From the IMG/VR virus record IMGVR_UViG_3300023178_003744, positions 1-64,000 of that record: a stretch of 64,000 nucleotides of DNA; one strand, 5' to 3'. Shown here piece after piece: positions 9,200 to 41,882 of the stretch. The translations under genes were made by a program, and so were the position numbers. Within the stretch, counting starts at the first letter, position 1; each line of letters starts with the position of its first letter. This DNA comes from a virus. The notes beneath the pieces are model-generated. The model did not search any database, was not told where the DNA came from, and worked only from the letters and a program-made list of their open reading frames with translations.

Positions 9200-10567
9200 A
9201 TGGCTTTACAACTAAGACGCGGTACTGACGCTGAGCGTTTAACAATTACACCTGCAGAAGGTGAATTAATATATACTACTGATACGAAGTTAATATATGT
9301 AGGCGACGGCAGTACACTAGGGGGCACAAAAGCCGATAGTGGTATTACTGATTTACTTTCAGATAGCTCTCCGCAGCTAGGTGGTAACTTAGATCTAAAC
9401 TCACAAACTATTACTGGCACCGGCGCTATTAATATTACTGGCAATATTAATGGTAACACAGTAGCAGGCAGTAGTGGTAACTTTACAAGCTCAGTAATTG
9501 GTAGTTTACAAGCAGCAAGCATTCAAGGTGATCTAACTGGATCTGTATTTGCCGATGACTCTACAATGCTTGTAGATGGTACTGATGGCAAAATTGTTCT
9601 TGTAAACAATGTAATTCAAGATTTAAGTAATGTTTATGTGCCCGTTACACCAACCGGCGGCGATGCTCTTATATGGAATGCAGTAGACAGCCGTTGGGAA
9701 GCTGGTAATCCTGCTGCAAGCGGCGGTACATTTGTAGGCGACGTCAAAGGCAGTATATTTGCAGACGATAGTACTTTAGTTTTTGATGCTATCAATAACT
9801 TAATAACTGTTCCTAGTATAGGTACAACTAATATATTTCCTCGAGATGCTAATGGTATTTCAATTGTAGGATTTCCGTCGGTTACTAATAAATTTTATTT
9901 GCAAGGTCAAGAAATACGTAGTCAGCAGATATTTGCTAGAACTACAACCGAAGATATAGAAGGTGAATATGTTGCATCGGGATCAACACATGAATTTGTA
10001 AACGGTACTCCGAGATCAATAGGTTCAATAACATTCCAAAAATTTGACGGGGTTGAGTTCTTCACACACGGAGTAATCGAAGGATTGAGTCACCGCATGG
10101 TACTAGCACATACAGCTAGTGCAACTGAACAACCTCCAATTTCTAAGCAATTCAGATTGATAGATGGATTTTTTGTTTTTGGTGATGCAGATTTTAGAGA
10201 AAAATTAAACGTTGGCGGCTCGGTATATTTAACCGGTGAAGTTACCGCTGACCAAGGTGTTCGTGCAAACATTATAGGTGATGATTCTGCTGTGATTTTA
10301 AATTATACAACAGGAGCTATAAACGCTAGCACAGTTACTGGTGACTTAAAGGGTAGTGTTTTTGCCGACGATAGTACTGCAATTGTAGACAGCATTAACC
10401 AAACTATAACTGCTGGAGGATTTGTGCAGTTTGGCTCATATAACACTACAGAACGAAATGCTCTTACTGCGGCAAATGGAATGGTAATATACAACTCACA
10501 AGTCAATAGATTTCAAGGTTATCAAAATGGTGCGTGGATAAACATCGACGACGGAACTGCGGCTTAA
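9200..10567 (+). CDS. virion fibre/spike-like protein (Mtd/hyaluronidase-type N-terminus)
   Basis: MALQLRRGT...PAEGELIYTTDTKLIYVGDG; DSSPQLGGNLDLN; three GDxxGS(V/I)FADDST repeats; C-terminal TTERNAL.AANGMVIYN..FQGYQNGAW. Confidence 0.75.
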   Translation: MALQLRRGTDAERLTITPAEGELIYTTDTKLIYVGDGSTLGGTKADSGITDLLSDSSPQLGGNLDLNSQTITGTGAINITGNINGNTVAGSSGNFTSSVIGSLQAASIQGDLTGSVFADDSTMLVDGTDGKIVLVNNVIQDLSNVYVPVTPTGGDALIWNAVDSRWEAGNPAASGGTFVGDVKGSIFADDSTLVFDAINNLITVPSIGTTNIFPRDANGISIVGFPSVTNKFYLQGQEIRSQQIFARTTTEDIEGEYVASGSTHEFVNGTPRSIGSITFQKFDGVEFFTHGVIEGLSHRMVLAHTASATEQPPISKQFRLIDGFFVFGDADFREKLNVGGSVYLTGEVTADQGVRANIIGDDSAVILNYTTGAINASTVTGDLKGSVFADDSTAIVDSINQTITAGGFVQFGSYNTTERNALTAANGMVIYNSQVNRFQGYQNGAWINIDDGTAA

Positions 10568-11442
10568 CAGTACCCTACATTCTTAGGTGGCTTAATCGGC
10601 GGCAATGCAGGTGGCCAGCCTGGCCAAGCTGGCCCTACTTGTAAAAAAAGTTCTGCTTCGTTGGTTTCTAATACATCAAAATACAATGTGTATTCCTGTC
10701 CTTCAAAAGAAAATTTTATATCAAATTTTTCTTCAGTTTTTCCGTAAATAAATCCATCTTCGTAAAAAACACCTGTCGGTAGAGGACTAATGTCTATTTC
10801 ATGAACATTGCCATCGAATAATTGAAATGCAAATAGTTCGTTTGGTTGGATATTTAAAATATCATTATTATTATGAATTAGTCCTGACATATTGTGTAAT
10901 CCTTGTTTATTATATTTATGCTTATACAAATGATACTTGGCTAATAGTAGACTGTTAGATGATTTACTCCTAAAATATACTATATTTTGATTCATAGTGT
11001 TTAACATTTTAATAATTTTTTTATCTGATTTTTTTGCTACTATCGTTACATTAGAATGCATTGCAAGTGCAAGATAGTTTAACTGTTTTTTATTAGGAAA
11101 GCTTACATGTAGCTGTTCTTGATCAAATTTATTTAATAGTTTTGCTAGCTTTTTATCTAAATAAGATAATCCAAAAGGCATGTAAATAGGATATTTTATT
11201 TCATGATTTATAAATTGGCTTAATAAATTAAATAAACTTTCATTGTTAATATTGATGTTATAGATAATAATTGGATAATTTAGTGTAGTAAAAGATTCAG
11301 CAACTTTAATAGTGTGAGAATTTAAATAATTTGTATAAGAATTCCTTACTGATATTTGGCCTACTCTGTGTATTTTATTTAAATTTTTAGTGTCACGTAA
11401 AACACTTATATTATCAATTATAATTGCTAGTTTTTTATCCAT
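10564..11442 (-). CDS. degenerate subtilase(S8)-like domain, Ig-like segment and Pro/Trp-rich C-terminal tail
   Basis: Ordered motifs AIIIDN / NSHTIKVAE / IYMPFG / VSFPN / SNVTIVA / SSNSLL; LPTGVFYEDGFIYGK; tail GPAWPGWPPALPPIKPPKNVGYC. The ORF is solid, the fold call tentative; start 11442 or 11460. Confidence 0.5.
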   Translation of the reverse strand: MDKKLAIIIDNISVLRDTKNLNKIHRVGQISVRNSYTNYLNSHTIKVAESFTTLNYPIIIYNININNESLFNLLSQFINHEIKYPIYMPFGLSYLDKKLAKLLNKFDQEQLHVSFPNKKQLNYLALAMHSNVTIVAKKSDKKIIKMLNTMNQNIVYFRSKSSNSLLLAKYHLYKHKYNKQGLHNMSGLIHNNNDILNIQPNELFAFQLFDGNVHEIDISPLPTGVFYEDGFIYGKTEEKFDIKFSFEGQEYTLYFDVLETNEAELFLQVGPAWPGWPPALPPIKPPKNVGYC

Positions 11443-12250
11443 AAACGTTCGAGTTTCCATATGCCCAATGCTTCACTGCCATTTTCTTTTTTGATGATTT
11501 ATGATTATTTCGTAGTATCGTATCGTATGGTTTTCCGTATTTTTCTTTAAAATGAATTTTATATTCCTTAAATCCTGTCCAAGAGTTATCTTGTTGTATA
11601 ACGGGTAGTCCGAGATCATTATAAAGCAAAAATTTCTTTGTATACATATTTGCATTCTTCATGTTGTGTACGTTTGATTTGATTATTTGCTTTTCAACTT
11701 CAAATTCTAAAAAAAAGAAAGGAAACAAATTAACCATATTGTTACTTTCTTTATATCTATATAGAACAAGTTCATCGTACGAAATCCAATTATATAATTT
11801 ATAACCGTATGTATCCTGCCATAATATAGGTGCAGATGGCAGTAGAATATTATAGTCAGGAAAATGTTTTACAGCATAATCAATAATATGTAAATGTACT
11901 GCAAATTGAGGACTTGTGCATCTATATAGGTTAAAATATTCTTCTGTAATATTTTTTTCCATGTATAATTTATCTAAATCTAAATATAATTTATGATCTA
12001 TTTGTAGTTGTTCTGCTGTTAAATTATCATATTTATTAAAAAAATTTTTCTTACTACCGTCTATGCAGTATTTGGCAAATAAAGTTTCTACGTGTATATT
12101 ATTATTTTTTAAAAATAATGTTAACGCCTGTGAATCAATTCCACCGCTAAATAATACTAAATTTTTTCTATTTGCAATTTTTGTAAGATCGTACTTTTTT
12201 TCCTGAATAATACATATCTCAATATCTGATTTCGATAAAACTTTTAACAT
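11435..12250 (-). CDS. PP-loop ATPase (adenine nucleotide alpha hydrolase; asparagine synthetase/QueC-like)
   Basis: LVLFSGGIDSQ motif; lacks the QueC Zn cysteines. Confidence 0.7.
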   Translation of the reverse strand: MLKVLSKSDIEICIIQEKKYDLTKIANRKNLVLFSGGIDSQALTLFLKNNNIHVETLFAKYCIDGSKKNFFNKYDNLTAEQLQIDHKLYLDLDKLYMEKNITEEYFNLYRCTSPQFAVHLHIIDYAVKHFPDYNILLPSAPILWQDTYGYKLYNWISYDELVLYRYKESNNMVNLFPFFFLEFEVEKQIIKSNVHNMKNANMYTKKFLLYNDLGLPVIQQDNSWTGFKEYKIHFKEKYGKPYDTILRNNHKSSKKKMAVKHWAYGNSNVYG

Positions 12251-12254
12251 GTTT

Positions 12255-12271
12255 TATTTATAGTATAAATA
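12255..12271. promoter_or_regulatory. back-to-back T4-late-like promoters
   Basis: TATTTATA-G-TATAAATA; each TATAAATA ends 4 nt before a start codon (12250 -, 12276 +). Confidence 0.75.
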
Positions 12272-12275
12272 TCTT

Positions 12276-12716
12276 GTGATTATAAAAAAAATTACATTTA
12301 ATACTGCATTACCTTTCTTAAAAAATCTATGGCCTACTACAAATAACATTTTACCAGCAAGTAGCATGCAGTATCTAGGTGGAAATGATATAACTATTTA
12401 CGAAAAATTTGAACCTAGTTTTTTTGGGATGTATAATAATACAGAGATTATAGGTGTAGTATCTGGTCATAAATCTTCCCAAGAATACTATAGAATGCGA
12501 GGATTATGGATCAATGAATTTTATAGAAAAAAGGGATTAAGTAAAAATTTGTTTATTACTATCGAAAACCAAGCTTTAAATGAAAATTGTAATTTTTTAT
12601 GGAGCTTTCCTAGACACGAAGCAATAAAAGCATATGCATCAAATGGCTTTGTACAAACTAGTAAATTTTTATCAACATCATATGGATTAAATTGCTATGC
12701 ACTTAAAAAACTTTAA
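12276..12716 (+). CDS. GNAT family acetyltransferase
   Basis: RMRGLWINEFYRKKGLSKNL (motif A) and AIKAYASNGF (motif B). Confidence 0.85.
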   Translation: MIIKKITFNTALPFLKNLWPTTNNILPASSMQYLGGNDITIYEKFEPSFFGMYNNTEIIGVVSGHKSSQEYYRMRGLWINEFYRKKGLSKNLFITIENQALNENCNFLWSFPRHEAIKAYASNGFVQTSKFLSTSYGLNCYALKKL

Positions 12717-13278
12717 CTTTACTCCGCCATTTTATACAGTACTAGATGTCTTAACTGATAGAGAGTGCTTGTTTTTAGAAAAATATCTAGCATTATCTGA
12801 CGATCAATTACAAACAGCTACTATTAATAGTAATAAAAAACCATCCGACGAGCGTAAAAGTTTAATAAATTTTCATAAATTTAATAATTCAAAAAATAAA
12901 TGGATATTTGAAAAAATTAATAATAGTGTTTTACATGCAAATCATAATTTTTGGAACTATGACTTGCACGGATATGACTTTTTTCAATATACTGTATATA
13001 CTACAGAGAATTCTCACTATAATTGGCATAATGATATCGGAGATTACAATAGCTTTTTTGGTGAAAGAAAAATAAGTATTAGTATTTTAGTAAATGATGA
13101 GTTTACTGGTGGCGTATTCAAAATTAATAACTTAAATCGTAATCAAGAAATAGATGTTACGTTAAAAAAAGGTCAAGCTATAATTTTTCCTAGTTTTGTA
13201 CCGCATTGCGTAACACCAGTTACTGCCGGCACACGAAAAAGCGTGGTAGCTTGGATTTGCGGTCCGCAATTTAAATAA
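12697..13278 (+). CDS. 2OG-Fe(II) oxygenase (PKHD/prolyl-4-hydroxylase-like)
   Basis: YNWHND, RKISISI, FTGG.F, FPSFVPHCVTPVTAGTRKSVVAW. Confidence 0.88.
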   Translation: MHLKNFNFTPPFYTVLDVLTDRECLFLEKYLALSDDQLQTATINSNKKPSDERKSLINFHKFNNSKNKWIFEKINNSVLHANHNFWNYDLHGYDFFQYTVYTTENSHYNWHNDIGDYNSFFGERKISISILVNDEFTGGVFKINNLNRNQEIDVTLKKGQAIIFPSFVPHCVTPVTAGTRKSVVAWICGPQFK

Positions 13279-16410: not shown

Positions 16411-17174
16411 TACTTTCCTTTTTTAGGTATCAGTATGAAAGATGATATTTCTACGTTTTTTACAAATTGATACTTGTGCTGAGCACAAAATTGTCTTATA
16501 TACGGAGTATCAATTTCTCTAATAGGATTATCATTCAAGTGTTCAAATTGTATCAACGGTCTCCACTTTTCAATAAGTTTGTTTGCTCCTTTAATGATAG
16601 CAATATCACTACTTTCAGCATCAATTTTTATAAAGGACAAATCTTCAATTTTTTCTAAAAATACATTGTCGAGTGTAGAAGATTGCATTTCAATAGTAAA
16701 CCAATTTGGTAATATTTGTTTCTTAACATTGTTATTCACATCGTGTGGAAGAAGTGGTGAGAGCAACGGCGTGTGCAAAACCGTATTGTGTTTTGCATCA
16801 TCTTCTACCATATCAAAATACCGTGTAGAATAACCTATATCTTGATTACTGCAATGAAATTGTACAGTTTCTTGCTTATCTGATAAAAAATAATGATAAG
16901 CTTCTAAATTATTTAATTTTTTATTTTTGATGTCTTGCATGATTAGTTCATAACTACTCTCATGCGCATCTATAGCGTATACTGTTTTAAATAATTTTGT
17001 ATATTCTAAAGTATTATGGGTACACTTGCCAATTCCAACTTCAATAGCTGTGCTATTTTCATGCAAAAGTCTTTTTGAAATTAATGTACCTATACCTGTA
17101 TAATGAAATAATGTATTACGATCCACTTGATATCCACTTATAAAGTTCGGGATTAAGTGCACGCCAATGTTCAT
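16410..17174 (-). CDS. FkbM family methyltransferase
   Basis: AIEVGIGKC, TLDN, FIKIDAESSD..IIKGA..I...RPLIQFE; the true start may be GTG 17126. Confidence 0.8.
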   Translation of the reverse strand: MNIGVHLIPNFISGYQVDRNTLFHYTGIGTLISKRLLHENSTAIEVGIGKCTHNTLEYTKLFKTVYAIDAHESSYELIMQDIKNKKLNNLEAYHYFLSDKQETVQFHCSNQDIGYSTRYFDMVEDDAKHNTVLHTPLLSPLLPHDVNNNVKKQILPNWFTIEMQSSTLDNVFLEKIEDLSFIKIDAESSDIAIIKGANKLIEKWRPLIQFEHLNDNPIREIDTPYIRQFCAQHKYQFVKNVEISSFILIPKKGK

Positions 17175-18264
17175 TTCTTATTTTATTCATTATTGAATCC
17201 ATATAATGAAATTTTCGTATATCACCCGTTTGATTTATCTCATTTTGTAAAAGTTTAAAAAATACTTTATATGGTTTATATTTATTTTTCAACAACCAAT
17301 TGTTTATTTTTTTCTTAAGGCTATTTTTTGCTTGATCAGGCAGATTACGTATTTGCATGTAATTTGGTCCGCTTATTAACGAATAACGATGATCAAACTT
17401 ATTAGTAATACAATAGTCCATTAATCTATCAACTATATTAACGTTATATATACTTGCAACACTTTGTATACTTAATTGATCAAAATTTTTGTTAAACCAT
17501 TCTATAGTTGCTGTTGTGTTCTTCCATGTTGACCCTTTACGTAAAAAATCGTTCATCTTGCCATAAGAGTCTACGCTTAATGCAATAGATACAGATTTAC
17601 ATTGCTTAAGTATACCTATTAATTTATTGTTAGGTATGGTTGTTGCATTGGTGACTAAATGAATAGTTAAATTTTTAGTGTCGCATTTTTCTATAAGACT
17701 TATCATTTTATCTTGCTCTAATAGAGGTTCACCGCCTAAAAACTTAATATGCTGTACTCGAGAAAAATCACCTTTATCTAAAAAATTATTATTTACTACA
17801 CCTTTATATGTATCAAAAGGAAAACTCTTGTCTTTTTTGCTTGCCATTTGTTCTAATTTTTTTGCATCAGTGTACCAATTGGTGCTTAACGACGGGCCGC
17901 ACATTCTGCATTTATTGTTACATAAATTACTAAACGCAATGTCTAAAAAACTTATATACGGATCTGTATGTTCTCTCAAGCTAATTGTACCAAGATAATC
18001 TTGTACACTCGGTTCTAGTACATCAGTTCTATAACTTTTATTTGCAATTTTTTCTTCTTGATAACATCGTGTGCAACCTGGATGAGCTTCGTCTTTTTTG
18101 CATTTATCTCGTAAGTTCTCTAAATACTTATCATTAAAAACATTAGGGTTTGATATGTTTATTGACTTCGGTTTATCAACATCATAAAATACACAACATG
18201 GTGAAATTTCTCCATCGGGACGTATAAATAGAGCGTTTAAGGGCAAAGGGCATCCAAATTTCAT
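17116..18264 (-). CDS. radical SAM enzyme with N-terminal twitch domain
   Basis: N-terminal CPLP..DGEISPCC..CTRC; CNNKCRMC; LGGEPLL. Confidence 0.9.
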   Translation of the reverse strand: MKFGCPLPLNALFIRPDGEISPCCVFYDVDKPKSINISNPNVFNDKYLENLRDKCKKDEAHPGCTRCYQEEKIANKSYRTDVLEPSVQDYLGTISLREHTDPYISFLDIAFSNLCNNKCRMCGPSLSTNWYTDAKKLEQMASKKDKSFPFDTYKGVVNNNFLDKGDFSRVQHIKFLGGEPLLEQDKMISLIEKCDTKNLTIHLVTNATTIPNNKLIGILKQCKSVSIALSVDSYGKMNDFLRKGSTWKNTTATIEWFNKNFDQLSIQSVASIYNVNIVDRLMDYCITNKFDHRYSLISGPNYMQIRNLPDQAKNSLKKKINNWLLKNKYKPYKVFFKLLQNEINQTGDIRKFHYMDSIMNKIRNEHWRALNPELYKWISSGS

Positions 18265-18276
18265 AAATATATTTAT
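18263..18276. promoter_or_regulatory. palindromic divergent late-like promoter ATAAATATATTTAT
   Basis: Perfect 14-bp palindrome; the minus-strand box is 5 nt from ATG 18264; identical to 28468-28481. Confidence 0.65.
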
Positions 18277-18289
18277 TATAGGAAAATAT

Positions 18290-18889
18290 ATGTTGTTGAA
18301 AAAATATGCAGAAACTGCTGAACGTTGTCAGCGCAATTATGATATAACGCAGCTATTACCTAAAGAGCATGTAGATTATATTTTATCAGTTTGCACAACT
18401 ATGCCATCAAAAAATAATAAAAATTTGTATAGACTTTTGGCTATACAAAATACAAGCATTTCTAAAAAAATATATATAAAAGGGGCATGGGCAGCTGGCG
18501 ATCTCAAATTAAAAGAAGTTCCTAATCAATATAGAAATGGCCAAGTATACGCACCATTATTACTAATTTGGGACGGGTCTATTTGTCCTGAAGGCAGGAA
18601 TAGTAGAGAAGATCATCTTATGGCTGTAGGTATTTCTAGTGGTGCTGCTGCATTAGCAGCAGCAGAGCTTGGGTATAAGACCGGTTTCTGTGTATGTTTC
18701 GAAGAGAAAAAAGTTGAAGGTGTTTTGAATAAACATATAGGTCAAACTTTAAATTTAAAAATTACACTTATGTTAGGTATAGGTTTACCAGACAGCCGAT
18801 TTGATCGTACAGAATGTGTTTTAAACGATAAAGTTGTCTATACATGTGGTTCTTTTAACAAGACCACACCTATTTTAGAAATACATTAA
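18290..18889 (+). CDS. nitroreductase-family flavoprotein
   Basis: RCQRNYD, MPSKNN, APLLLI, VGISSG...AAAELGYKTGFC, LMLGIG. Confidence 0.75.
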   Translation: MLLKKYAETAERCQRNYDITQLLPKEHVDYILSVCTTMPSKNNKNLYRLLAIQNTSISKKIYIKGAWAAGDLKLKEVPNQYRNGQVYAPLLLIWDGSICPEGRNSREDHLMAVGISSGAAALAAAELGYKTGFCVCFEEKKVEGVLNKHIGQTLNLKITLMLGIGLPDSRFDRTECVLNDKVVYTCGSFNKTTPILEIH

Positions 18890-20088
18890 CCAAATACCTT
18901 CATGTCAGTTAAATGACTAGGTAGTATGTCAAACAACTGCTGTTTTTCAGTAGCTTTAGGCACGCATAGACCACAACCACAGTGCTTTCCAGGACCTAAC
19001 GGGCATTGAATTACTGGCATTGTATTATTTTCTATATTACTTCGTAAATTTTCTAGAATTTTTCTATTTTCAGTAATTGATCCGATTGGGCCTCGAGTAC
19101 CGTCAAATCTTGCTTGGCAAGTTTGATGATGCCAAATAGTATCTGTTTGTTGTTCTATATGCAAAAAGAACCAATTTACACTGCAATGCCAATTTCTAAA
19201 TTTAGCAAACTCTAAAAATTGACTCTTTTTCCATTCGCCGTCATTGCTACAAACTTCCATTGTTCTACTACCACAGCAAGGCCTTCCTAATTCTCTTGCA
19301 AGTTTTTTCTCTTGTGATTTTTCAGTTTGAACTGCACTAGCTTCATGAGATACTTTTGCTTCTTTTGCTACTTTAGACTCATTCAATTTAGCATTTTTAT
19401 TGGCCCAATACTCTTTAAACCAAGAAAGTTGTTCGTCGGTATATCTATGAGCAAAGCTGTTATGACTGTCTTCATGTTCACCGATTAATCTGGGAACAAA
19501 TCCTATGCCGTCTCGATCTAATTGTAAACATAAATCTTTGCATTCTTCAAAATACTCTGCATGGAACATAACATTGGTTTTCAATGGAAATTTCTTTTCA
19601 GTAAGATAATAAATGTTATCTACTACTTGTTTTTTAAGCTTTTGATGAGCTTCGGCGTGATAGCTTATTGTAATAAAACCATAGTTTTCGATTATGCTGT
19701 CAGCCATTTTCCTACTAAAAGCTCCGTTACTTGTAATAGTAAGGTTAAGCATAAATTTTTTCTTATACTTTTCTTTGTAAGTTTCTTTTAGCCATTCTCC
19801 AAACTTTAAAAAGTTTGGATTTACTGTAGGTTCACCTCCAGTAAAATTTAAATTTAAGCGTTTATTAGTTTTGTATCGTGTTAGGAGTTCGCCGTATTCA
19901 AATACAAAATTAGCAGTATCTTGCAGTGTTTCTAAACTTGCATGAGGTGAAAAATTATCATGTCTATGTGCCGGACAATAAGTGCAGTCATAATTACAAC
20001 GACGGCCTACATCCCAAGTCACAGTTAAATTGTGTCCATCTAACAAATTTACTGCTTTAAAATCAGTTTTTTCAATTGTTTCGGTCAT
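18886..20088 (-). CDS. radical SAM enzyme with Cys-rich C-terminal SPASM-like domain
   Basis: CNYDCTYC, TGGEPT; GRPCCG, CSVNW, CQA, CP..CGCGLC. Confidence 0.9.
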   Translation of the reverse strand: MTETIEKTDFKAVNLLDGHNLTVTWDVGRRCNYDCTYCPAHRHDNFSPHASLETLQDTANFVFEYGELLTRYKTNKRLNLNFTGGEPTVNPNFLKFGEWLKETYKEKYKKKFMLNLTITSNGAFSRKMADSIIENYGFITISYHAEAHQKLKKQVVDNIYYLTEKKFPLKTNVMFHAEYFEECKDLCLQLDRDGIGFVPRLIGEHEDSHNSFAHRYTDEQLSWFKEYWANKNAKLNESKVAKEAKVSHEASAVQTEKSQEKKLARELGRPCCGSRTMEVCSNDGEWKKSQFLEFAKFRNWHCSVNWFFLHIEQQTDTIWHHQTCQARFDGTRGPIGSITENRKILENLRSNIENNTMPVIQCPLGPGKHCGCGLCVPKATEKQQLFDILPSHLTDMKVFG

Positions 20089-21398
20089 ATCATATACTTT
20101 TCTAAGTTAGGGCATACTTCTGCTATGCTTTCATTGCGCATAGTGTCTAATTTTTTAGTGTAGCTGCAAAATTCTTGCCAGTGATCATTATAGTAACTTT
20201 CACTATTCATATATTTACATACTCCGTTTACAATTCTATGAGCATGTTCTACAACGTGTTTTTCAAAATTATTTTCTTCAATCCACGTAAGAAAATCATT
20301 AAAACGTTCTGTAAGTCTTGCTTTTTCTTCGTTCGGTAACACTCTTATATTTAAATGCTTTGGGTGATGTGCTACATGATGAGTAATTATAGGTTTACCT
20401 CTAGTACTGTTTATTTTTTTAAAACCACTTTCTGTAAGTTTCCATTTCATAAAATCAATCATATGATCCACAGTATAAGCTGTTACAGTAAACGCTAGCC
20501 AACTTCTAACATTTCCTGCCATATTGTCTAATGTTTGTAAATTTTTTAAAGTTTTGAGCCATTTTGCTGGATGCCGTTGGTATTCAAAAACTTTATCCAT
20601 TCCATCTATACTTGCACCTATCTTAACTGATTTAAACCATTCCCATAACTTTTTAACTCGTGATGGTAATGTACTCATATTTGTGTTGTACTCTACAGAA
20701 ATATTTTTAGCGTAATCATTTTGTACACAGTATTCTAAGAAATCATAATGGCGCTCAATTAGCATAGGTTCGCCGCCTGCAAAATATACATGCTCTATAG
20801 TATTTGCATTTTTTTCTAATTGTTGCCAAAAAGGTTCATAATTAGGCCAGTCAAATTCTTTCGCATGCAACCCTTTACTGGTATTTTCAATTGTAATATT
20901 TCCGCTACTATCTTTAAAAGTATTTGATCCAGTTAATTTTATCCAATCTTCATACCAAGCACTACTATCAGTAGGTCCACACATTCTACATTTTAAATTA
21001 CAAAAATTACCAAATCGTATATCATAATGGCGTACTGGCACTAACTCTGTGTTTATATTACCGTCTTGATCAGTATCAGCTTTAGCCTGCTCTAGTGTAT
21101 AGTCCCATTGTTTTAGTTCTTCTGTACGCCTGCTATGTAAGCCGTTGGATTCTTCTGTTAAACACCGGCCGCACTCTTGACTCCATTGATTATTAAGCAT
21201 ATTAATGCGCATAGCACGCATTAACTTAGAATTTCTACTATCGTCTAAGCTATCAAATCCAGCATTGTAAGCTGACCCATCTTGTTTACGCAAAACACCT
21301 TTATTAGGTGTTACGTTAGCTTGACAGCAAACTCTTACATCGCCATTAGCTCGTACTGCTTGAAAAATCCAAGGTATAGGGCAAAAAGTGTTTGACAT
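20085..21398 (-). CDS. radical SAM enzyme with N-terminal twitch domain
   Basis: CPIPW..GDVRVCC..CGRC; CNLKCRMC; AGGEPML; YNTN. Confidence 0.9.
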   Translation of the reverse strand: MSNTFCPIPWIFQAVRANGDVRVCCQANVTPNKGVLRKQDGSAYNAGFDSLDDSRNSKLMRAMRINMLNNQWSQECGRCLTEESNGLHSRRTEELKQWDYTLEQAKADTDQDGNINTELVPVRHYDIRFGNFCNLKCRMCGPTDSSAWYEDWIKLTGSNTFKDSSGNITIENTSKGLHAKEFDWPNYEPFWQQLEKNANTIEHVYFAGGEPMLIERHYDFLEYCVQNDYAKNISVEYNTNMSTLPSRVKKLWEWFKSVKIGASIDGMDKVFEYQRHPAKWLKTLKNLQTLDNMAGNVRSWLAFTVTAYTVDHMIDFMKWKLTESGFKKINSTRGKPIITHHVAHHPKHLNIRVLPNEEKARLTERFNDFLTWIEENNFEKHVVEHAHRIVNGVCKYMNSESYYNDHWQEFCSYTKKLDTMRNESIAEVCPNLEKYMI

Positions 21399-22258
21399 TA
21401 TTTTATCTTTAACTTCTTCTTTGCAGAGTCAATTGCCCATTTGCGTTCTGCACACCAATAACAACAGCCTTTTTCTAAATCATCTGTCAAATCTAAACAT
21501 TCTATTAAAGGACTTTTACCGTGTTTATACGTAGTATAATCTTCAAACTGAGATAGTAATAATTTATCACCTTCGCAGCTTCTTGTAGTAGCAAGTAAAT
21601 CTTCCCATCCATTTTTATAATACTGTCCTATTACAAAATCTTTAGAAAGTAATCTCCACGGCAAAACCGTACGCTTGTCATTGTTAAGATGCCATTGCGG
21701 ACAGTCAAGTTCCCTCATAACTTTTTTCCAAGTCCACTTTCTGTCCCAAGGTTCACCCCTATGCTTAAACTTTTCATCTATAGGATTATTTGTTATAAAT
21801 CCATAAACTGCATCTATATCATACCTGTGCTGCACGTAGCTATTAAAACTGTTTGTGCAAATTCTATCACCAGATTTGTCTAGCTGCGCTATTTTTCCTA
21901 TTGCACCGTCTTCGAGTTCAGGCGGAATAAAGTTTTCTAATCTTGTCATTTTAATATTAGGAAACATCGACTGTAATTTTTCAAAAACTTCTACACTAAT
22001 AGGTGCTGCCCAGGGCCTATTATTCCATACTCTTACATTAGAAATAACAATTAATTCTGCATTAGACTTGGTTTTTTCAATAAAAGAACATAAAGTAGCT
22101 GTACCACAAGCACTATCCGCACCTCCGCTCACATTTACTGCTATTTTTTTCCATGTAGGATCAAATGGAAACACCGTATTATCTAAGGGCTGTAAAATGT
22201 TTTTAGGTACTTTCCAGTAATTATAACTTTTATTATTCAATTCTACATTAAATTTCAT
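21398..22258 (-). CDS. QueC-like PP-loop ATPase
   Basis: VNVSGGADS; TRSCE...CCYWCAERKW. Confidence 0.7.
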   Translation of the reverse strand: MKFNVELNNKSYNYWKVPKNILQPLDNTVFPFDPTWKKIAVNVSGGADSACGTATLCSFIEKTKSNAELIVISNVRVWNNRPWAAPISVEVFEKLQSMFPNIKMTRLENFIPPELEDGAIGKIAQLDKSGDRICTNSFNSYVQHRYDIDAVYGFITNNPIDEKFKHRGEPWDRKWTWKKVMRELDCPQWHLNNDKRTVLPWRLLSKDFVIGQYYKNGWEDLLATTRSCEGDKLLLSQFEDYTTYKHGKSPLIECLDLTDDLEKGCCYWCAERKWAIDSAKKKLKIK

Positions 22259-23645
22259 TAAATATATCTTTCATATCAGGAAATACATCTTGCCAACTGG
22301 TGCTTCTTTGTTTATCGCAAAGTTCTAGAAATTCTTTCATTTCAGGCAATCGAATACTCCAATCTTCTGATTCCATAAATTGTAACATACCTTCTAAACG
22401 TTGTATACCATAATTTGCTGTTCGCCAATCTTCGTACGTTACTTTTCCTTTATGCCAACTTGGAATGCCTTTTTCCCAATTAGCTTCCCACCAAGGATAA
22501 AACTCTTCGTATTTTTTTCTGCATTTTTCCTTAAACTCGTTAGGCAAAATTTTAACATTTAAATGCGGCGGATGGTATACAAAATGATAATTTACACCAC
22601 CTGCTCCAAACGGCCACATATTTATTTTGTTAAAGTTTTGCTCTAGTTTCCACTTTATTAAGTCAGGAATATAATATATGTTTAACGCTTGAACTGCACA
22701 AGCTACAGTAATTTCTACATTGTTTGATGTTTCTTTGTCAAGAATATGAAATACTTCTTTTTGCCTTTTCCACTTACTTGGATAGCGTATGTAATCATTC
22801 ATTTCTTCTATACTATCTATACTGTAATGGAAACGCACTAATTTAAAATGTTTCCATAAATCAAATAAGTCATCTCGCCATTCTACACCATTTGAATTAT
22901 ATCTTATTTCTAGGTCTTTAGCATAACCCATTTCAATACATTTTTCTAATATTTCGTAGTGCTCTTCGATAATAAGGCTTTCGCCGCCTGCAAAATAAAT
23001 TTGTTGCATGTTAGGAATTTGTTCATAAAATTGCTCCCAAAATACAGGATTTTGCTTATGCCAATTGTAACTACTACCGTTGTAACTGCCTTTGTCTTTC
23101 CATTGCATTGTTGTTTTTAAACTGGCATTTTCTACTGCTGGAAAAATAGCTTTGTAATCTTTTATCCAACCCGAACTATCGTGCGGAGAGCACATTACGC
23201 ATGCTAGTTGGCATTTAGTGCCAAACCGCAAATCAATATAAGCTAATTGCGGAGGTACACTTCCGTCATCGTTTGTGTTTTCTATTAATTTACCAACACT
23301 TACTCTTTTGCTCCAGTACTCTGTTTCCCATTGGCGTTTACTACGATGACCGGCTGCTTCTTCTTTATAACATTTTAAACAACTAGGAGGCTTTTCACCA
23401 TTCATCATTTGTCTTCTGACATTTTTCATATAAGTGCTATTCCAACTACTTAAAAAATCACTTACATTTAAATTATTAGGCTTACCGTCATCTGTTTTTA
23501 AAATTCCTACCATACCACCGTGTTCACGATCGTTGGTAGCTCCTACACTAGATGCATTTGCTGTACAACATACTCGCATACTTCCGTCTGGCCTAGTGCT
23601 CAAATGAACCCAGGGTAAAATACAAAATGTATCACTTACTGTCAT
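22248..23645 (-). CDS. radical SAM enzyme with N-terminal twitch domain
   Basis: CILPW..DGSMRVCC..CLKC; CQLACVMC; AGGESL. Confidence 0.9.
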   Translation of the reverse strand: MTVSDTFCILPWVHLSTRPDGSMRVCCTANASSVGATNDREHGGMVGILKTDDGKPNNLNVSDFLSSWNSTYMKNVRRQMMNGEKPPSCLKCYKEEAAGHRSKRQWETEYWSKRVSVGKLIENTNDDGSVPPQLAYIDLRFGTKCQLACVMCSPHDSSGWIKDYKAIFPAVENASLKTTMQWKDKGSYNGSSYNWHKQNPVFWEQFYEQIPNMQQIYFAGGESLIIEEHYEILEKCIEMGYAKDLEIRYNSNGVEWRDDLFDLWKHFKLVRFHYSIDSIEEMNDYIRYPSKWKRQKEVFHILDKETSNNVEITVACAVQALNIYYIPDLIKWKLEQNFNKINMWPFGAGGVNYHFVYHPPHLNVKILPNEFKEKCRKKYEEFYPWWEANWEKGIPSWHKGKVTYEDWRTANYGIQRLEGMLQFMESEDWSIRLPEMKEFLELCDKQRSTSWQDVFPDMKDIFNEI

Positions 23646-25057
23646 TTATTATCATCCGTAAAAATATATTCGTAAAACTTTGGGAATATGTCTAAAATTG
23701 ATTGCCCGCGATGCGCATCGAGTTGTTCTGTGTATTTTTCACATTCTATTCTTTGCTCTGCTTTATGTCCATGCTGATCTTCTGTAAGATTGCTAGGCAG
23801 CGCATTAAAAACCATTTCAGTTTTTTCTTCATTTGGGATAAGCACATCAGCATGCTTTCCGATTTTTACAATATCTTTGTTAATTCTATCAATCTTATAC
23901 CAAGTTACTTTAACGTTTTCGGGTTCATTATCTATATTATCCATTAGATTTTTATAATATTGTTTCCATTTAGTATACTCTTCAAACCAAGCTTTTTTGC
24001 CTTGATTATTTAAAATTTTAATACTTAACCTACTAGGATCATATAAAAAATCAAACGATAAATTAAAATTATAACGTATTCGTTGATTGACTCTAAATTG
24101 TTCGATATACCATTTTGCCATATCAAACACATCAAAAACATTATATATTTGTACAACATAAGAAATATTTATTGTAACTTGTTTTCCGTCTTGCTCTAGT
24201 AACTTTGCTAAATTAGTAGATAACACTTCCCATTTACTAGGGTATCTTATATATTCATTTACTTTTTCTGTGCCGTCGATGCTTAAATTAAAAATAACTC
24301 TTTCGAATTTGTTTATTACTGCTAACAATCTAGGCTGTAAATTTGTTAAATTAGTAGTCATCTTTAATGTTATTTGTTTAGCATAATCTTTTTCTACTAG
24401 ATTGTCAAGTAAGTCATACATCTCATCGTGTAATGTAGGTTCACCGCCGACAAAAGTTATTTCTTTTACTTCAAATATATTATCTTCTAAACTTTTCCAA
24501 AAAACAGATATGTCATCTATTTTATCAAAAGTTAGATCTTTATACCAAGTGGGTTGATTGGTATCTTGAAATTGTTGCTGTTCTTTAACAATTTGACTGC
24601 TAAACTGGGGCCAGCACATTCTGCATTTTAAGTTGCATAAATTATTTAATCTAATATCAAAATATGAAATCTGAGGATTTGTAACTATTTCGTCAAACGA
24701 CCTAGTTAAAGCATCTTGCCATTTTACATTCTCTTTCATTCGTTTACTAGGTAAAAATTGTTTTGGTCCTACTTCAGTCCAATCTTTATCAAAATCAACT
24801 TCCTCTTTCCAACAAATTTCACACTCTGGCAATCTTTCATCATTTAAGATTTTCTGCCTAGCTTCGTTCATGTAATCGCTATTCCAAATTTCAGTAACTG
24901 AATCCTTTGCAATATTAAATTTTTCATTATTATTTTTCACTGCTACTTTTTTTCGATTAACTTTGCAGCATAATCTTACGTTACCTTCAGTAGTCGTTGC
25001 TAAATGGATGAAAGGTAGTATACAAAAATTTTTTAAGTCAGAAACTTTGTTACTCAT
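23642..25057 (-). CDS. radical SAM enzyme with N-terminal twitch domain
   Basis: CILPF..GNVRLCC..CEIC; CNLKCRMC; VGGEPT. Confidence 0.9.
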   Translation of the reverse strand: MSNKVSDLKNFCILPFIHLATTTEGNVRLCCKVNRKKVAVKNNNEKFNIAKDSVTEIWNSDYMNEARQKILNDERLPECEICWKEEVDFDKDWTEVGPKQFLPSKRMKENVKWQDALTRSFDEIVTNPQISYFDIRLNNLCNLKCRMCWPQFSSQIVKEQQQFQDTNQPTWYKDLTFDKIDDISVFWKSLEDNIFEVKEITFVGGEPTLHDEMYDLLDNLVEKDYAKQITLKMTTNLTNLQPRLLAVINKFERVIFNLSIDGTEKVNEYIRYPSKWEVLSTNLAKLLEQDGKQVTINISYVVQIYNVFDVFDMAKWYIEQFRVNQRIRYNFNLSFDFLYDPSRLSIKILNNQGKKAWFEEYTKWKQYYKNLMDNIDNEPENVKVTWYKIDRINKDIVKIGKHADVLIPNEEKTEMVFNALPSNLTEDQHGHKAEQRIECEKYTEQLDAHRGQSILDIFPKFYEYIFTDDNK

Positions 25058-25062
25058 AAAGA

Positions 25063-25092
25063 TATTTATAACTGCATTAAATAAGGTAAATA
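25063..25092. promoter_or_regulatory. divergent late-like promoters
   Basis: TATAAATA on the minus strand (25063-25070), 5 nt from ATG 25057; TAAATA on the plus strand (25087-25092), 4 nt from ATG 25097. Confidence 0.7.
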
Positions 25093-25096
25093 TTTC

Positions 25097-26356
25097 ATGA
25101 ACGATTCTACATTTTGTCCTTTTCCTTTTGAATCATTAGCTCTTAAAAGTTGGCTAAACGGCCAAATTCATAAAGTTTATCCGTGTTGTAATATGAAACA
25201 CGATCGTCCCATAACTGAAGTAAATAAAGAAACAGATCTGCAAAAAGTTTTTGACAGTCAGACCTTTCAAAATCTACGTAAAGACTTAATGAACGGAAAG
25301 AAAAATTCTCTATGTAATTATTGCTGGAACTTAGAGAAGCAAACTGGCCAAAGTCCAAGAACAATAGCATGTGAATCAAATAATACAACTTACAAAAAGA
25401 CAAAAAAACTAAAAATTAAAAAATTAGATATTCTTACTGATGAAGCATGCAATTTACGATGTCGAATGTGTACTCCGTCGTCGTCAAACAGTTTAAGAAT
25501 AGATGTAAATAATCTCATAAGCAATGACAAACCATTAGTTAGCAATTGGCCAAAGCATTCTGTAAGTTATGCAAAATTAGATCCAAAAGGCACCAGTGCT
25601 TTTTTTAATATGGGCCAAAAATATATAGATGAAATAGTACAAATTTCTGATACTTTAGAAGAAATAAAATTTACAGGCGGCGAGCCGACAATAAGTTCTA
25701 CTTTTTGGCAAATAATAGATAATATTCAAAATCCTAATATCAAAATTCATCTTACAACAAATGGTACAAAATTTAATCAGAGATTATTGAAAACTTTAGA
25801 TAAATTTACTAATAAACATTTTACAATAAGTGTAGATGGCACAGATTCAACCTATGAGTACATACGTCATCCGTTTTTGTGGAGTAAACTCACTGAAAAT
25901 ATAAATCGTTTAATATCTCATAACCAAAATCACAATACTGAAATACATTTTTGCAGTGTACTAACTTCTTACAACATATTAAACATACACTATCTTGTAA
26001 CCTACATAGAAAAACTATCAACTACTTGCTCGAATAACATAAAATGGAAATGCATTCCTAATCCTCATCCTAAAGATAGCGTGTTTGATGTTAAATATCT
26101 TCCTACTCATATTTTAAAAAAAGCATTAAACTATTTTGAGATTTTAGAACAAGACTGTACTAAAACATCAATACATGCTGTGAGAAAAATTAAAAATTAT
26201 TTGCAGTTTAACATAGAAAATCCAATTGACATTGATACAAAAACAAAAAAATTAACAATGTTAAAACAAGATATAGATTTATTAGATTTCTCTCGAAAAC
26301 AGTCGTATAAAGACTTTCTTCATGACGACTTAATAGACATTATAGAAGATATTTAA
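25097..26356 (+). CDS. radical SAM enzyme with N-terminal twitch domain
   Basis: CPFPF..YPCC..CNYC; CNLRCRMC; TGGEPT. Confidence 0.9.
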   Translation: MNDSTFCPFPFESLALKSWLNGQIHKVYPCCNMKHDRPITEVNKETDLQKVFDSQTFQNLRKDLMNGKKNSLCNYCWNLEKQTGQSPRTIACESNNTTYKKTKKLKIKKLDILTDEACNLRCRMCTPSSSNSLRIDVNNLISNDKPLVSNWPKHSVSYAKLDPKGTSAFFNMGQKYIDEIVQISDTLEEIKFTGGEPTISSTFWQIIDNIQNPNIKIHLTTNGTKFNQRLLKTLDKFTNKHFTISVDGTDSTYEYIRHPFLWSKLTENINRLISHNQNHNTEIHFCSVLTSYNILNIHYLVTYIEKLSTTCSNNIKWKCIPNPHPKDSVFDVKYLPTHILKKALNYFEILEQDCTKTSIHAVRKIKNYLQFNIENPIDIDTKTKKLTMLKQDIDLLDFSRKQSYKDFLHDDLIDIIEDI

Positions 26357-27446
26357 ATTCAGGTATAGTTTTTATATAATCTATGTTTCTTATTTTAGAT
26401 ATGTCATGTAGATGATCTACTAGTACTGCATGGTAATCTTGTTTATAAGAAGAATTTGTAACAATAGTTTGTAATTCACTAATTTTTTTCCGTATATTAG
26501 GAAAATTTTTCTCTGATGTTTTCAACATATCAGTAACAAACTGCTTTGCCGAGTCTGGCATTGCGTCGATACTAAAATGCTTAGGATTAATGCAATTTAA
26601 AAAATCTATTTTTGTTTTTGGCCTGTCTTTTACAAACTTAGAAATAAAATGCAACCATTGGTCTGCTACTAAAATGTTATAAGGTTGTATGACAAAATTT
26701 AGATTTATATTAATCTCTTTCATTGTACAAAGTTGATCAACGTTATGTTTTACTGTATTCCAATTTGCTGGAAATCTTATGAGGTTGTACACCTCATCAA
26801 CAGCATCAATACTTAATATAACTGTTAAACTTTTAAACTTACTTTTGTATTTGTCAAAAAAGTTTTTTATTCTAGTTGCATTTGTAGTAATTATTAACTC
26901 AACTTTTGATGCATCATATTTTTTTATAAATTTATCTAAGAATGCAATACAATACGGATCAATGGTTGGTTCTCCGCCAGCAAGTTTTAAAAATTTCAAA
27001 TTACTAAAATCAATATCAATGTTAATATCCAAATTATTACCAGCAGCTACTTGCCTAAAATATTTAGACATGTGTGTATTTTTTTTTACAAAACTTTGTA
27101 TTTGAGAACTGTCTGCTTGTGAACACATGTTGCATTGTAAATTACAATAATTGCTTGTTCTTATATCTGCCCAAATTGGTTTATGCTTTTTGTAATCAAT
27201 GGACGATTGATGCTCTTTGTCTAGTTGAGAAAACCAATTCCGTAAAGACATTTCACTTGTATAAGTTTCTTTATTCCAACAAACTCTGCACTCTTTTTGT
27301 TTTTTTCTGTTAACGTAATTAGCAACCTTTTTATAATTATAATCATCTAGATTATAATCATCATCATAATTGCAACAAGGAGCAATTGTATTTTTGTCAG
27401 TTTTATAAAAAAGACCTATATAAGGTGCTGCACACTTATTTGTCAT
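26340..27446 (-). CDS. radical SAM enzyme with short N-terminal twitch domain
   Basis: CAAPY..APCC..CRVC; CNLQCNMC; AGGEPT. Confidence 0.88.
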   Translation of the reverse strand: MTNKCAAPYIGLFYKTDKNTIAPCCNYDDDYNLDDYNYKKVANYVNRKKQKECRVCWNKETYTSEMSLRNWFSQLDKEHQSSIDYKKHKPIWADIRTSNYCNLQCNMCSQADSSQIQSFVKKNTHMSKYFRQVAAGNNLDINIDIDFSNLKFLKLAGGEPTIDPYCIAFLDKFIKKYDASKVELIITTNATRIKNFFDKYKSKFKSLTVILSIDAVDEVYNLIRFPANWNTVKHNVDQLCTMKEININLNFVIQPYNILVADQWLHFISKFVKDRPKTKIDFLNCINPKHFSIDAMPDSAKQFVTDMLKTSEKNFPNIRKKISELQTIVTNSSYKQDYHAVLVDHLHDISKIRNIDYIKTIPEFKYLL

Positions 27447-28455
27447 GGAATTTTATTTCATTTTGGTACGCACCCTTTTTAGCACATGTTCTAATGCATC
27501 TACTTATATGAAGATTATGTTTAGGGTCCCAACTGTCTTGCAAAACTTTTTGATAGTATTCTGTACTTAGAATTTCATCTAGGGAATGAAACTGTAAATT
27601 GTTCCAATCCGTAGGAAAGGTTTTATATTTGTCTAATATTTGTTCTTTATTTTTGAATGCACTATCCCATAGAAAACAACACGGCCAAACAGTACTATTA
27701 GCTGCGATGAAAATTTCTTTTCCATGATAAAATTTGCAATCAATACTTGATAATATTTCTTTTGTTTGCTGTTCTGATTTATTTTCATTTGTAATAAATT
27801 TATCAAGCTCGGCTACTACTGCTTTTTTGCTGTGCTCTTTTGCTCCACTAGTTGTTATTACTACATCGGTTTTATCGTTTTTCTTACCGATTTTTGATAC
27901 CCAATCATGATAACTATTCCTCATACCAGTACGGGTTGCAAAATCAAATCCGTATTCTCTTGCTAATTTTTTAGCTTCATCAACTTCGTGTTCATTATGA
28001 TCAAAAACAATGTATATCCACGTTCCTTGGCCGCCTGCGTCACTATACGCTTTCATGTTCCGTTTGATTATATCAAAATTTGTATTAACTCTATATATAT
28101 AATTACTATGCGTACCGTCTACACAAAAATTTACCTTAATATTTAACTTACCTAGTTCGTTCCACCACGAAGCACTGTTACGTCCTCCGTTAGTACTATA
28201 TTGTATAAATGCACCTTTTTCTACTAGATATTGTGTTATTTCTAAACATTCAGGATTTACAATAGGATCTCCTAGAACTCCACAAAACTTGAATTTTATT
28301 CCTTTTGGGTCTGGGAACCAATTTTTAATTTGTTGTAGTGTTAAGTTCTGTGGTTTTAAAATATCTAAATTTTGAGTCCGAGCACATCCCGGACATGCTG
28401 CGTTACAGTCACTGGAAATTTCTAATTCTACTCGTTGTATATTTTTTATTTGCAT
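27436..28455 (-). CDS. radical SAM enzyme with C-terminal twitch domain
   Basis: CNAACPGC, CGVLGDP, STNG; C-terminal C..WPCC..CIRTC. Confidence 0.9.
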   Translation of the reverse strand: MQIKNIQRVELEISSDCNAACPGCARTQNLDILKPQNLTLQQIKNWFPDPKGIKFKFCGVLGDPIVNPECLEITQYLVEKGAFIQYSTNGGRNSASWWNELGKLNIKVNFCVDGTHSNYIYRVNTNFDIIKRNMKAYSDAGGQGTWIYIVFDHNEHEVDEAKKLAREYGFDFATRTGMRNSYHDWVSKIGKKNDKTDVVITTSGAKEHSKKAVVAELDKFITNENKSEQQTKEILSSIDCKFYHGKEIFIAANSTVWPCCFLWDSAFKNKEQILDKYKTFPTDWNNLQFHSLDEILSTEYYQKVLQDSWDPKHNLHISRCIRTCAKKGAYQNEIKFHDK

Positions 28456-28467
28456 TAATCGCTTCCA

Positions 28468-28481
28468 ATAAATATATTTAT
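28468..28481. promoter_or_regulatory. palindromic divergent late-like promoter ATAAATATATTTAT
   Basis: Identical to 18263-18276; the plus-strand box is 5 nt from ATG 28480. Confidence 0.65.
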
Positions 28482-41834: not shown

Positions 41835-41859
41835 GCTTGCTTAACCTCTCAGTTACAAG

Positions 41860-41865
41860 TATTTA
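41860..41865 (-). promoter_or_regulatory. late-like TAAATA box
   Basis: Intergenic; upstream of GAGAGG RBS and ATG 41834. Confidence 0.55.
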
Positions 41866-41882
41866 GCCTAATTTATTAGATT

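Follow-up and report, generated by a model that had tools for sequence, protein, structure and literature searches.

Subtilisins, the S8 serine peptidases of MEROPS clan SB (e.g. BPN', Carlsberg and the intracellular subtilisins), have an alpha/beta core of ~270 residues on which the catalytic groups follow one another in the order Asp-His-(Asn)-Ser. They carry the glycine-rich signatures D-[ST]-G, H-G-T-H and G-T-S-M-A. Here, we describe a viral gene for a subtilase-like protein in which this established fold and its catalytic logic take a form unrecognized by any sequence model, on a core about two-thirds of the normal size. The gene occurs once in a 77-kb IMG/VR virus record, IMGVR_UViG_3300023178_003744, of which positions 1–64,000 were analysed (‘the window’). 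The record is estimated to represent only 21% of its genome, which makes its source a jumbo phage; it is an uncultured, marine one, and its DUF2201/VWA protein is nearest to those of jumbo phages (PA5oct-type, CMSTMSU), with ~43–44% identity. On balance, we think it probable that the gene specifies a novel, highly divergent, miniaturized serine hydrolase of the subtilisin fold (clan SB, S8-like), likely to be active, which carries an immunoglobulin-like (Ig-like) binding domain and acts late in infection, with an adenylating ATPase, on a protein or peptide linked to the enzyme island in which it is encoded.

Compared with the subtilisins, the window protein has the same alpha/beta fold (Z 10.3–10.9, ~168–173 residues aligned), and in it Asp, His, Asn and Ser succeed one another as they do there, at topologically equivalent positions. 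A signal peptide is lacking, as in the intracellular subtilisins. It differs in the length of its core (~182 residues), in the absence of an I9 prodomain and of any match to PF00082 or other S8 hidden Markov models (HMMs), and in belonging to a family met only in metagenomes and viruses. Proprotein convertases (kexin, furin and PCSK9) give the best structural scores (Z 11.6–12.2), and they too consist of a subtilase core followed by an all-beta domain. In the window protein this domain is a ~65-residue Ig-like sandwich rather than a P-domain or a Cys-rich domain, and there is neither a prodomain nor a secretion signal.

Other subtilases process or cyclize ribosomal peptides: the cyanobactin enzymes PatA, PagA and PatG (a macrocyclase), and the lanthipeptide proteases NisP, EpiP and LicP. 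These have the subtilisin fold and are encoded, as here, amid enzymes of the peptide-tailoring type. PatA, PagA and PatG match the model at Z 11.3–11.9 (3zxx, 4akt and 4h6w), but their scores are tied with those of unrelated subtilases and therefore denote no specific kinship. Unlike these systems, the locus in the window has no known separate precursor gene or recognition sequence, and its product is a phage protein with no sequence similarity to them and no PatG capping insertion that we could identify. Some precursors are fused to enzymes: in the borosin methyltransferases of the OphMA type, and in the BURP-domain cyclases of plants (burpitides), a variable C-terminal peptide is carried on a conserved, folded enzyme. 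An engineered, autocatalytic fusion of PatG and its substrate is a comparable concept (PMC10804404). The window protein also bears a C-terminal appendage, but its scaffold is a protease fold, most members of its family have no such tail, and modification and release are putative. The literature that we searched described no natural protease-fused precursor, and gave no account of this family.

The genomic setting, too, has a counterpart. Marine T4-like myophages possess ‘host recognition cluster’ islands, situated between tail-fibre genes and highly variable between close relatives, that hold radical SAM cassettes and Asp/Asn beta-hydroxylases (PMC7029224). The layout here is alike, in a larger phage. 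No subtilase-like gene figures in that account, in which the words ‘protease’ and ‘peptidase’ have 0 occurrences (PMC7029224).

A miniature subtilisin fold

A preliminary description, made from the sequence, had set six motifs of the protein beside motifs of subtilisin—AIIIDN, NSHTIKVAE, IYMPFG, VSFPN, SNVTIVA and SSNSLL—and had suggested that the Asp, His, Asn and Ser positions were possibly kept and the glycines lost. All six are present in the translation, in the order claimed, as are the segments LPTGVFYEDGFIYG and ETNEAELFLQ and the tail, VGPAWPGWPPALPPIKPPKNVGYC. The order of motifs is unconvincing by itself; the invariance of D10, H43, N117 and S164, together with the outcome of the fold search, lifts the correspondence beyond chance.

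The structure was modelled with AlphaFold2 (AF2) from an alignment of 16 sequences, A4. Confidence, measured as predicted local distance difference test (pLDDT), averaged 73.5, and was ~80–94 over residues 41–170; prediction from the single sequence gave 45.6, too poor for use. The model was compared with 48,161 PDB representatives by VIA-align, a method independent of Foldseek. S8/S53 peptidases (subtilases and sedolisins) occupied ranks 1–40, rank 36 excepted, with Z scores of 8.8–11.6, root-mean-square deviations of 3.5–4.3 Å, and 158–180 of model residues 1–185 aligned. Unrelated, Rossmann-like folds came next, at Z ≤8 and ~115 aligned residues; apart from these, ExoVII reached Z 9.2, with only 113 residues aligned. 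In a second structural comparison Z rose to 12.2, and residues 1–182 of the model spanned residues 24–276 of subtilisin BPN', so that the whole subtilisin core appears to be compressed into ~182 residues. The 1-to-24 register places D10 within one residue of subtilisin D32. The top PDB match by Foldseek was subtilisin DY (E 3.8e-3, probability 1.0), and the BFVD matches include a phage ‘Peptidase S8/S53 domain’ protein (180 columns). From these models we conclude, with high confidence, that residues 1–185 adopt the subtilisin fold of clan SB, as had been supposed from the motifs. The support for this comes from structure, not from sequence.

Positions that are invariant throughout the family number only 14. 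Among the sequences that cover the columns concerned, D10 is present in 14 of 14, H43 in 15 of 15, and N117 and S164 each in 16 of 16. In the model, D10 lies at the C-terminal end of strand 1 (residues 5–10), H43 at the N-terminus of helix 42–52, N117 three residues past strand 111–114, and S164 at the N-terminus of helix 163–176. We take these to be the topological equivalents of subtilisin D32, H64, N155 and S221. On that view the charge-relay triad is probably made up of Asp10, His43 and Ser164, and Asn117 probably belongs to the oxyanion hole. The loss of the glycines had led to the protein being called degenerate, and perhaps a pseudoprotease. That description does not suit a family in which the chemistry appears to have been kept although the glycines were not: because Asp, His, Asn and Ser are invariant at ~25% family identity, we infer that the protein is probably active. 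Neither a signal peptide nor a prodomain was found in it, and it therefore presumably acts within the infected cell or on the virion.

The boundaries of the gene (Table 1) follow from its relatives. The open frame extends over 10564..11460 (−); its upstream ATG, at 11460, could serve as another start but has no support in the family. The second ATG, at 11442, is the start in the family alignment and in P0002, a relative that is ~77–78% identical; it agrees with the N-termini of the homologues, and is the start that had been adopted from the outset.

The Ig-like domain that follows the predicted subtilisin-fold domain had also been noted in the preliminary description, and the model agrees. Eight strands are predicted in this region by AF2. 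Foldseek matches it to the Ig modules of FGFR and Robo, with probabilities of 0.93–1.0 over 76–88 columns and E values of only 8e-3 to 2e-2. In BFVD, it matches phage tail-collar, Ig and other structural proteins. Sequence methods give less: a profile search found weak matches to designed Ig proteins, Atlas gave a weak Big_2 lead (score 0.80, below the reliability line), and Pfam had no match for the region. We hold with moderate confidence that residues ~195–260 form an Ig-like sandwich, a domain seen within the model of the whole protein.

Table 1. Features of the subtilase-like gene and its surroundings; positions are those of the window unless L003 (the related locus) is named
Feature	Position	Strand	Description and basis
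Subtilase-like gene, whole	10564..11442	(-)	292 aa: mini-subtilase domain, Ig-like domain, Pro-rich tail; open reading frame list
Predicted subtilisin-fold domain, residues 1-185	10888..11442	(-)	AF2 model, VIA-align, residue invariance
Candidate catalytic codons	D10 11413-11415; H43 11314-11316; N117 (oxyanion) 11092-11094; S164 10951-10953	(-)	
Predicted Ig-like beta-sandwich, residues ~195-260	10663..10860	(-)	Predicted strands, Foldseek, BFVD
Disordered Pro/Trp/Gly-rich tail, residues 270-292, GPAWPGWPPALPPIKPPKNVGYC	10567..10635	(-)	pLDDT, GC; stop codon 10564-10566
PP-loop-like (Asn-synthase/QueC-like) ATPase gene	11435..12250	(-)	271 aa; upstream, translationally coupled; SGGIDS motif, weak profile matches
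Divergent pair of T4-type late-promoter-like boxes, TATAAATA	12255..12271	both	Read from sequence
GNAT acetyltransferase gene	12276-12716	(+)	PF00583, 2.6e-10
Prolyl-hydroxylase-type oxygenase gene	12697-13278	(+)	PF13640, 1e-14
Convergent tail-fibre gene, Mtd_N domain	9200..10567	(+)	PF18454, 2.8e-11
Five radical SAM proteins with N-terminal SPASM-type match	17116-18264, 20085-21398, 22248-23645, 23642-25057, 25097-26356		
Subtilase-like and second PP-loop-like genes, L003	L003 10001-11766		
Orthologue of the window PP-loop gene, L003	L003 12404-13213		

Relatives and their distribution

By ‘family’ we mean a set of ~16 homologous clusters, whose members are labelled P0001, P0002 and so on. 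Phmmer, run exhaustively against 1.84 billion representatives, yielded six credible relatives, and two profile rounds enlarged the family to its present size; all the clusters are unnamed and all are metagenomic. Identity to the window protein is 22–40%, except for P0002 (78%). One candidate, P0008 (809 aa, with LamG-like repeats), was dropped as a spurious match. Comparison with 50,697 phage records by tblastn and megablast found no match to the protein, to its PP-loop partner or to the 5-kb region. When the genomes of 185,579 prokaryotic species were scanned by pattern, no bacterial or archaeal relative of either protein emerged, a result that, being pattern-based, leaves absence unproven. 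Scans of viral contigs gave no further loci. A single related record came to light, the 158-kb G001, whose locus we call L003. As far as these searches reach, the family is one of metagenomic and viral contigs only.

L003 is syntenic with the window. The exonuclease, MoxR ATPase and DUF2201 proteins are 63–73% identical between the two. Identity is lower for the GNAT acetyltransferase (45%), for the hydroxylase (44%) and for the PP-loop protein (35%), and for the subtilase-like protein it is only 26%. The block that they have in common comprises the fibre, GNAT, subtilase-like, PP-loop and Asp/Asn hydroxylase genes. In L003 the subtilase-like homologue, which has no tail, comes after the fibre gene and two GNAT genes, and is coupled via TAATG to another PP-loop-like gene (318 aa, SGGIDSE), not orthologous to the one in the window. 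The orthologue of the window's own PP-loop gene lies 1.6 kb off, on the other strand. Since a PP-loop partner is present at both loci, the pairing has been seen twice, though the partners are not orthologous.

Near-identical copies of the gene (3–5 substitutions per ~1.1 kb, window 10400–11700) occur in marine (2021, 2024) and seawater metagenomes and in salt-marsh samples (2018). The phage lineage therefore endures from year to year and in different coastal habitats. In contigs of related phages the 3' end of the fibre gene is matched (~90% identity), and unrelated sequence takes over at 10560 or 10568. This is the stop of the fibre gene, and the subtilase-like gene therefore belongs to a variable island. 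The stop codons of the two convergent genes overlap in TTAA, which, to judge from the alignments, is both the edge of the island and a recombination breakpoint.

A probable operon at the edge of an enzyme island

The PP-loop-like gene that precedes the subtilase-like gene encodes the motif FSGGIDSQ, and its nearest Atlas clusters are viral members of the ‘Asn synthase family’ (scores 0.95–0.97). The subtilase-like gene, from its ATG at 11442, overlaps the end of the PP-loop gene (TAA, 11435–11437) by 8 nt, within ATGGATAA. The coupling of the two genes, pointed out in the preliminary description, is borne out by this overlap; the assignment to the PP-loop class is weak, its profile scores falling below the cut-offs. 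Upstream of the pair, TATAAATA stands 4 nt before the ATG at 12250 (−), and a mirror-image box stands 4 nt before the GTG at 12276 (+). TATAAATA resembles the late-promoter consensus of T4-like phages. Boxes placed 4 nt from the starts imply late transcripts that would be leaderless, or nearly so, and without Shine–Dalgarno sequences. The PP-loop and subtilase-like genes appear to form a two-gene operon that is expressed late from this box.

The GNAT gene and that for a prolyl-hydroxylase-type (P4H-type), 2-oxoglutarate (2OG)- and Fe(II)-dependent oxygenase are divergent from the operon. Both had been named as neighbours and both have clear Pfam matches; the stretch that they occupy (12276..13278) also matches PHROG 61, and the oxygenase gene is 1.2 kb from the subtilase-like gene. 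Beyond the oxygenase come an Asp/Asn beta-hydroxylase, an FkbM methyltransferase, a nitroreductase and at least nine radical SAM genes. Tail-fibre genes flank the whole (9200–10567 and 40320–45142), and the subtilase-like gene thus lies on the border of this hypervariable island of enzymes, in which radical SAM genes abound. Scans of 18 proteins from the neighbourhood against Pfam found no PqqD family and no recognition element (RRE) family of ribosomally made peptides that are modified after translation (RiPPs), although divergent RREs could escape such scans.

Two further features of the region may be recorded. In five proteins encoded within 17116–29805, a SPASM-type, Cys-rich match occurs at residues ~1–90, N-terminal to the radical SAM core, which is the reverse of the usual order. 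And the tail-fibre genes are separated from a baseplate wedge gene by a single open reading frame of 5046 aa (45794–60934).

Enzyme or pseudoenzyme

Several observations weigh against an active, subtilisin-like enzyme. The glycine-rich S8 signatures are missing, and the corresponding motifs read IDN, SHT and NSL. Pfam (at E ≤1), PHROGs and NCBIfam gave nothing significant for the protein; PF00082 matched neither it nor any of 15 family members at E ≤1, and found nothing in the phage genome at E ≤10, whereas 8 of 14 control genomes matched. A profile search of the PDB, at E ≤10, returned no S8 chain. The fold model was built on a shallow alignment of 16 sequences; Z scores of 10–12 are evidence of a common fold, not of activity; and the best-scoring chain is PCSK9, which, after self-cleavage, binds rather than catalyses. 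The supposed partner is itself weakly classified: against QueC (PF06508) it scores E 6.7e-4 and 19.6 bits, below the cut-off of 22, and against the PP-loop families of NCBIfam E 0.006–0.09, far under their cut-offs. Genomic context is known for two loci only, the window and L003. And metatranscriptomes supplied two short contigs, 10400–10647 and 11308–11458, from libraries that may hold DNA.

Much of this could be explained if the protein were not a catalyst but a binding or structural one, i.e. a pseudoenzyme of subtilisin fold, with an Ig domain, whose part it is to decorate the virion or to act as chaperone for the fibre next to it, its tail serving as an anchor. The loss of the classical signatures, the lack of an HMM match, and a binder as best structural match would all fit, as would the likeness of the Ig-like domain to tail-collar and structural proteins of phages in BFVD. 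So would the position of the gene, which abuts a fibre gene and has a late-promoter-like box, and its very fast evolution (26% identity where core genes have 63–73%). Pseudoenzymes normally lose their catalytic residues, however, and here Asp, His, Asn and Ser are strictly invariant while nearly all else has changed. Coupling to ATPase genes, moreover, suggests enzymology. We regard this explanation as unlikely, and think an active enzyme the probable one.

The C-terminal tail

The feature of the protein that first drew attention is its C-terminus, where a sharp switch in composition had been placed at 10564–10653. The switch is real: GC content is 59% in the tail (10567–10635), 25% in the remainder of the gene, and 33% in the window as a whole, a consequence of the codons for Pro, Gly, Ala and Trp that the tail contains. 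Its coordinates need correction, for a 24-aa tail and its stop codon take up 10564–10638. The tail, compositionally distinct as had been noted, has a pLDDT of ~30, and predicted disorder covers residues 261–292.

With respect to this tail, the family splits into two. Subfamily a, which has it, consists of the window protein, P0002 and P0003–P0006. Its members have 22–50 extra residues, among which Pro, Gly, Trp, Tyr and Asn are frequent and which cannot be aligned between lineages, although they have in common a loose (P/D)(P/Q)(K/E)x0-3Y motif towards their end and, in many cases, PxW towards their beginning; the tail of P0004 includes about five G-X-Y triplets. Subfamily b, 10 of the 16 members, lacks it. 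These proteins are ~270 aa long and end ~17 residues past the penultimate strand of the Ig domain, in a conserved C-terminus of the NPxKxNNYQFSILAKKW type with no Pro-rich tail. The expectation that homologues would share a distinct, variable tail thus fails for most of the family.

Where the tail is present, it changes rapidly. In four pairs of near-identical proteins, substitutions affected 19 of 138 tail sites (13.8%) and 22 of 1078 scaffold sites (2.0%), an enrichment with an odds ratio of 7.7 (p 1e-8). Four of the five changes between P0002 and P0022 are within it. Faster evolution than the scaffold, another expectation of the preliminary description, is thereby substantiated, though disorder in itself brings rapid change to a tail, for reasons that are not specific. 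The window protein and P0002 agree in all of the last nine residues, KPPKNVGYC, despite an overall identity of 77%, and the tail is kept in frame in P0001 and P0002. Judged by these comparisons, it is genuinely coding, its middle changing fast and its end under constraint, and is not a frameshift artefact. It is a lineage-specific, disordered accessory.

What might such an accessory do? One answer is that it is a collagen-like or polyproline substrate of the P4H-type oxygenase, which tethers the enzyme to the fibre, the particle or the host envelope, without being set free as a product. PP and PxP repeats occur in the tail (PPALPPIKPPK), the G-X-Y triplets of P0004 are of the expected kind, and the PF13640 oxygenase is encoded close by in the window and has no homologue anywhere in the 158-kb G001 record, whose subtilase-like protein is tail-less. 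This co-occurrence fits a link between tail and oxygenase, as far as two incomplete genomes, one of them only 45% complete, can indicate. Phages of this sort commonly encode other 2OG oxygenases. The tail may plausibly act as a tether or be a substrate of the P4H-type enzyme; the proposal in full, with a modified and permanently attached tether, we consider improbable.

A second answer, and the one put forward in the preliminary description, is that the protein is a fused RiPP precursor or a cofactor-like one: the tail would be a core peptide on an enzyme scaffold, modified by the oxygenases and radical SAM enzymes of the island (through hydroxylation of Pro, for instance, or cross-links at Trp, Tyr or Cys), and released or cyclized by the subtilase domain, by analogy with borosins, burpitides and PatG. 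The disordered tail, on ~35 flexible residues, could reach the protein's own active site. In close pairs its rate of change exceeds that of the scaffold 7.7-fold, as just described, and six lineages have non-homologous tails, rich in Pro, Gly, Trp and Tyr, with the same loose motif near the end. The island supplies candidate tailoring enzymes in its radical SAM genes (at least nine, several of the SPASM type), hydroxylases, nitroreductase and methyltransferase. The best structural matches include the RiPP proteases PatA, PagA and PatG, albeit tied with all other subtilases, and the tail-less relative is also without the P4H-type oxygenase (n = 2).

The rapid evolution of the tail, then, has been upheld; its interpretation as a core peptide has fared less well. 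The tail-less members are the chief difficulty: the subfamily b copy in L003 retains its PP-loop, GNAT, hydroxylase and radical SAM neighbours, and the conserved function of the family therefore needs no fused core. In addition, the extreme C-terminus is conserved within clusters, as KPPKNVGYC illustrates, Pfam saw no RRE or PqqD-like domain in the adjacent enzymes, and fast change is to be expected of any disordered tail. We consider a fused precursor very unlikely. The same slim chance attaches to the wider notion of a peptide factory, in which the tail would be modified in cis or by island enzymes, cut or cyclized by its own active site, and activated with the help of the PP-loop protein, to give a small, modified peptide or cofactor during infection.

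The DNA of the tail has peculiarities of its own. On the (−) strand, at 10613–10645, a T TTT TTA heptamer stands 7 nt ahead of a GC-rich hairpin (−20.2 kcal/mol), a 22-nt near-palindrome (GGCCAGC..GCTGGCC) made by repeated TGG-CCA codons for Trp-Pro. The −1 frame after the heptamer would give an alternative end of 17 aa. Deletion of one T (by hand translation) would end the protein two codons on, near the end of subfamily b. We considered three functions for this DNA and rejected each. For a programmed −1 frameshift, the hairpin is unexceptional (z −1.3; 21 of 200 shuffles fold as well), and P0002, which reads ELFAQV and has a single WP, conserves neither the T-run nor the hairpin. For diversification by a diversity-generating retroelement (DGR), an idea that came from the adjoining Mtd_N fibre, there is no template-like repeat of the tail DNA in the 77-kb record. 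And for a bidirectional terminator, no U-run follows the hairpin on either strand.

That the tail is an artefact or recoding product—from frameshift, read-through, or slippage at the run of seven Ts—is hardly credible and largely refuted, for, suggestive as the heptamer, hairpin and alternative ends may be, the zero frame is open and makes the tail by default, the tail is conserved as protein in P0001, P0002 and P0022, five other lineages have tails of their own, and no indels occur at the T-run in metagenome contigs.

What the protein may do, and why it matters

The reading that we prefer, of a miniature and probably active subtilisin-like hydrolase, can be put as follows. Residues 1–185 would form an alpha/beta subtilisin core at about two-thirds of the usual length. 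The Ig-like sandwich that follows probably mediates binding, by analogy with the P-domain and PPC domain of other subtilases and with the Ig domains on phage particles. The last 23 residues would be a polyproline-like, disordered appendage, peculiar to one subfamily and fast-evolving. Expressed late, from the TATAAATA box, in an operon with the PP-loop ATPase, the protein would most likely be a sequence-specific protease or transpeptidase that, in concert with that ATP-dependent, adenylating enzyme, processes some protein or peptide, of the phage or of its host, with a link to the island. The tail would be an accessory tether, or a docking or substrate segment, which the P4H-type oxygenase encoded nearby may hydroxylate. 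It is probably not the conserved reason for the existence of the family.

Annotation based on sequence alone (Pfam, PHROGs, NCBIfam) overlooks this family entirely. If its triad is active, the protein will be among the smallest natural enzymes of subtilisin fold, at ~182 residues, and one with no prodomain and no recognizable calcium-site or glycine signatures. It would bear on the question of how little of the fold suffices for folding and catalysis, and on the engineering of proteases and peptide ligases. Were the peptide-factory idea to prove true, this would be the first natural protease-fused precursor of the RiPP type, and the first in a phage host-recognition island. For the phages themselves, the finding places a protease-type enzyme, together with adenylating ATPases, in the fast-evolving islands beside the tail fibres of marine jumbo phages, and it gives these islands a testable handle: the target of the protease, with its own tail as a possible substrate.

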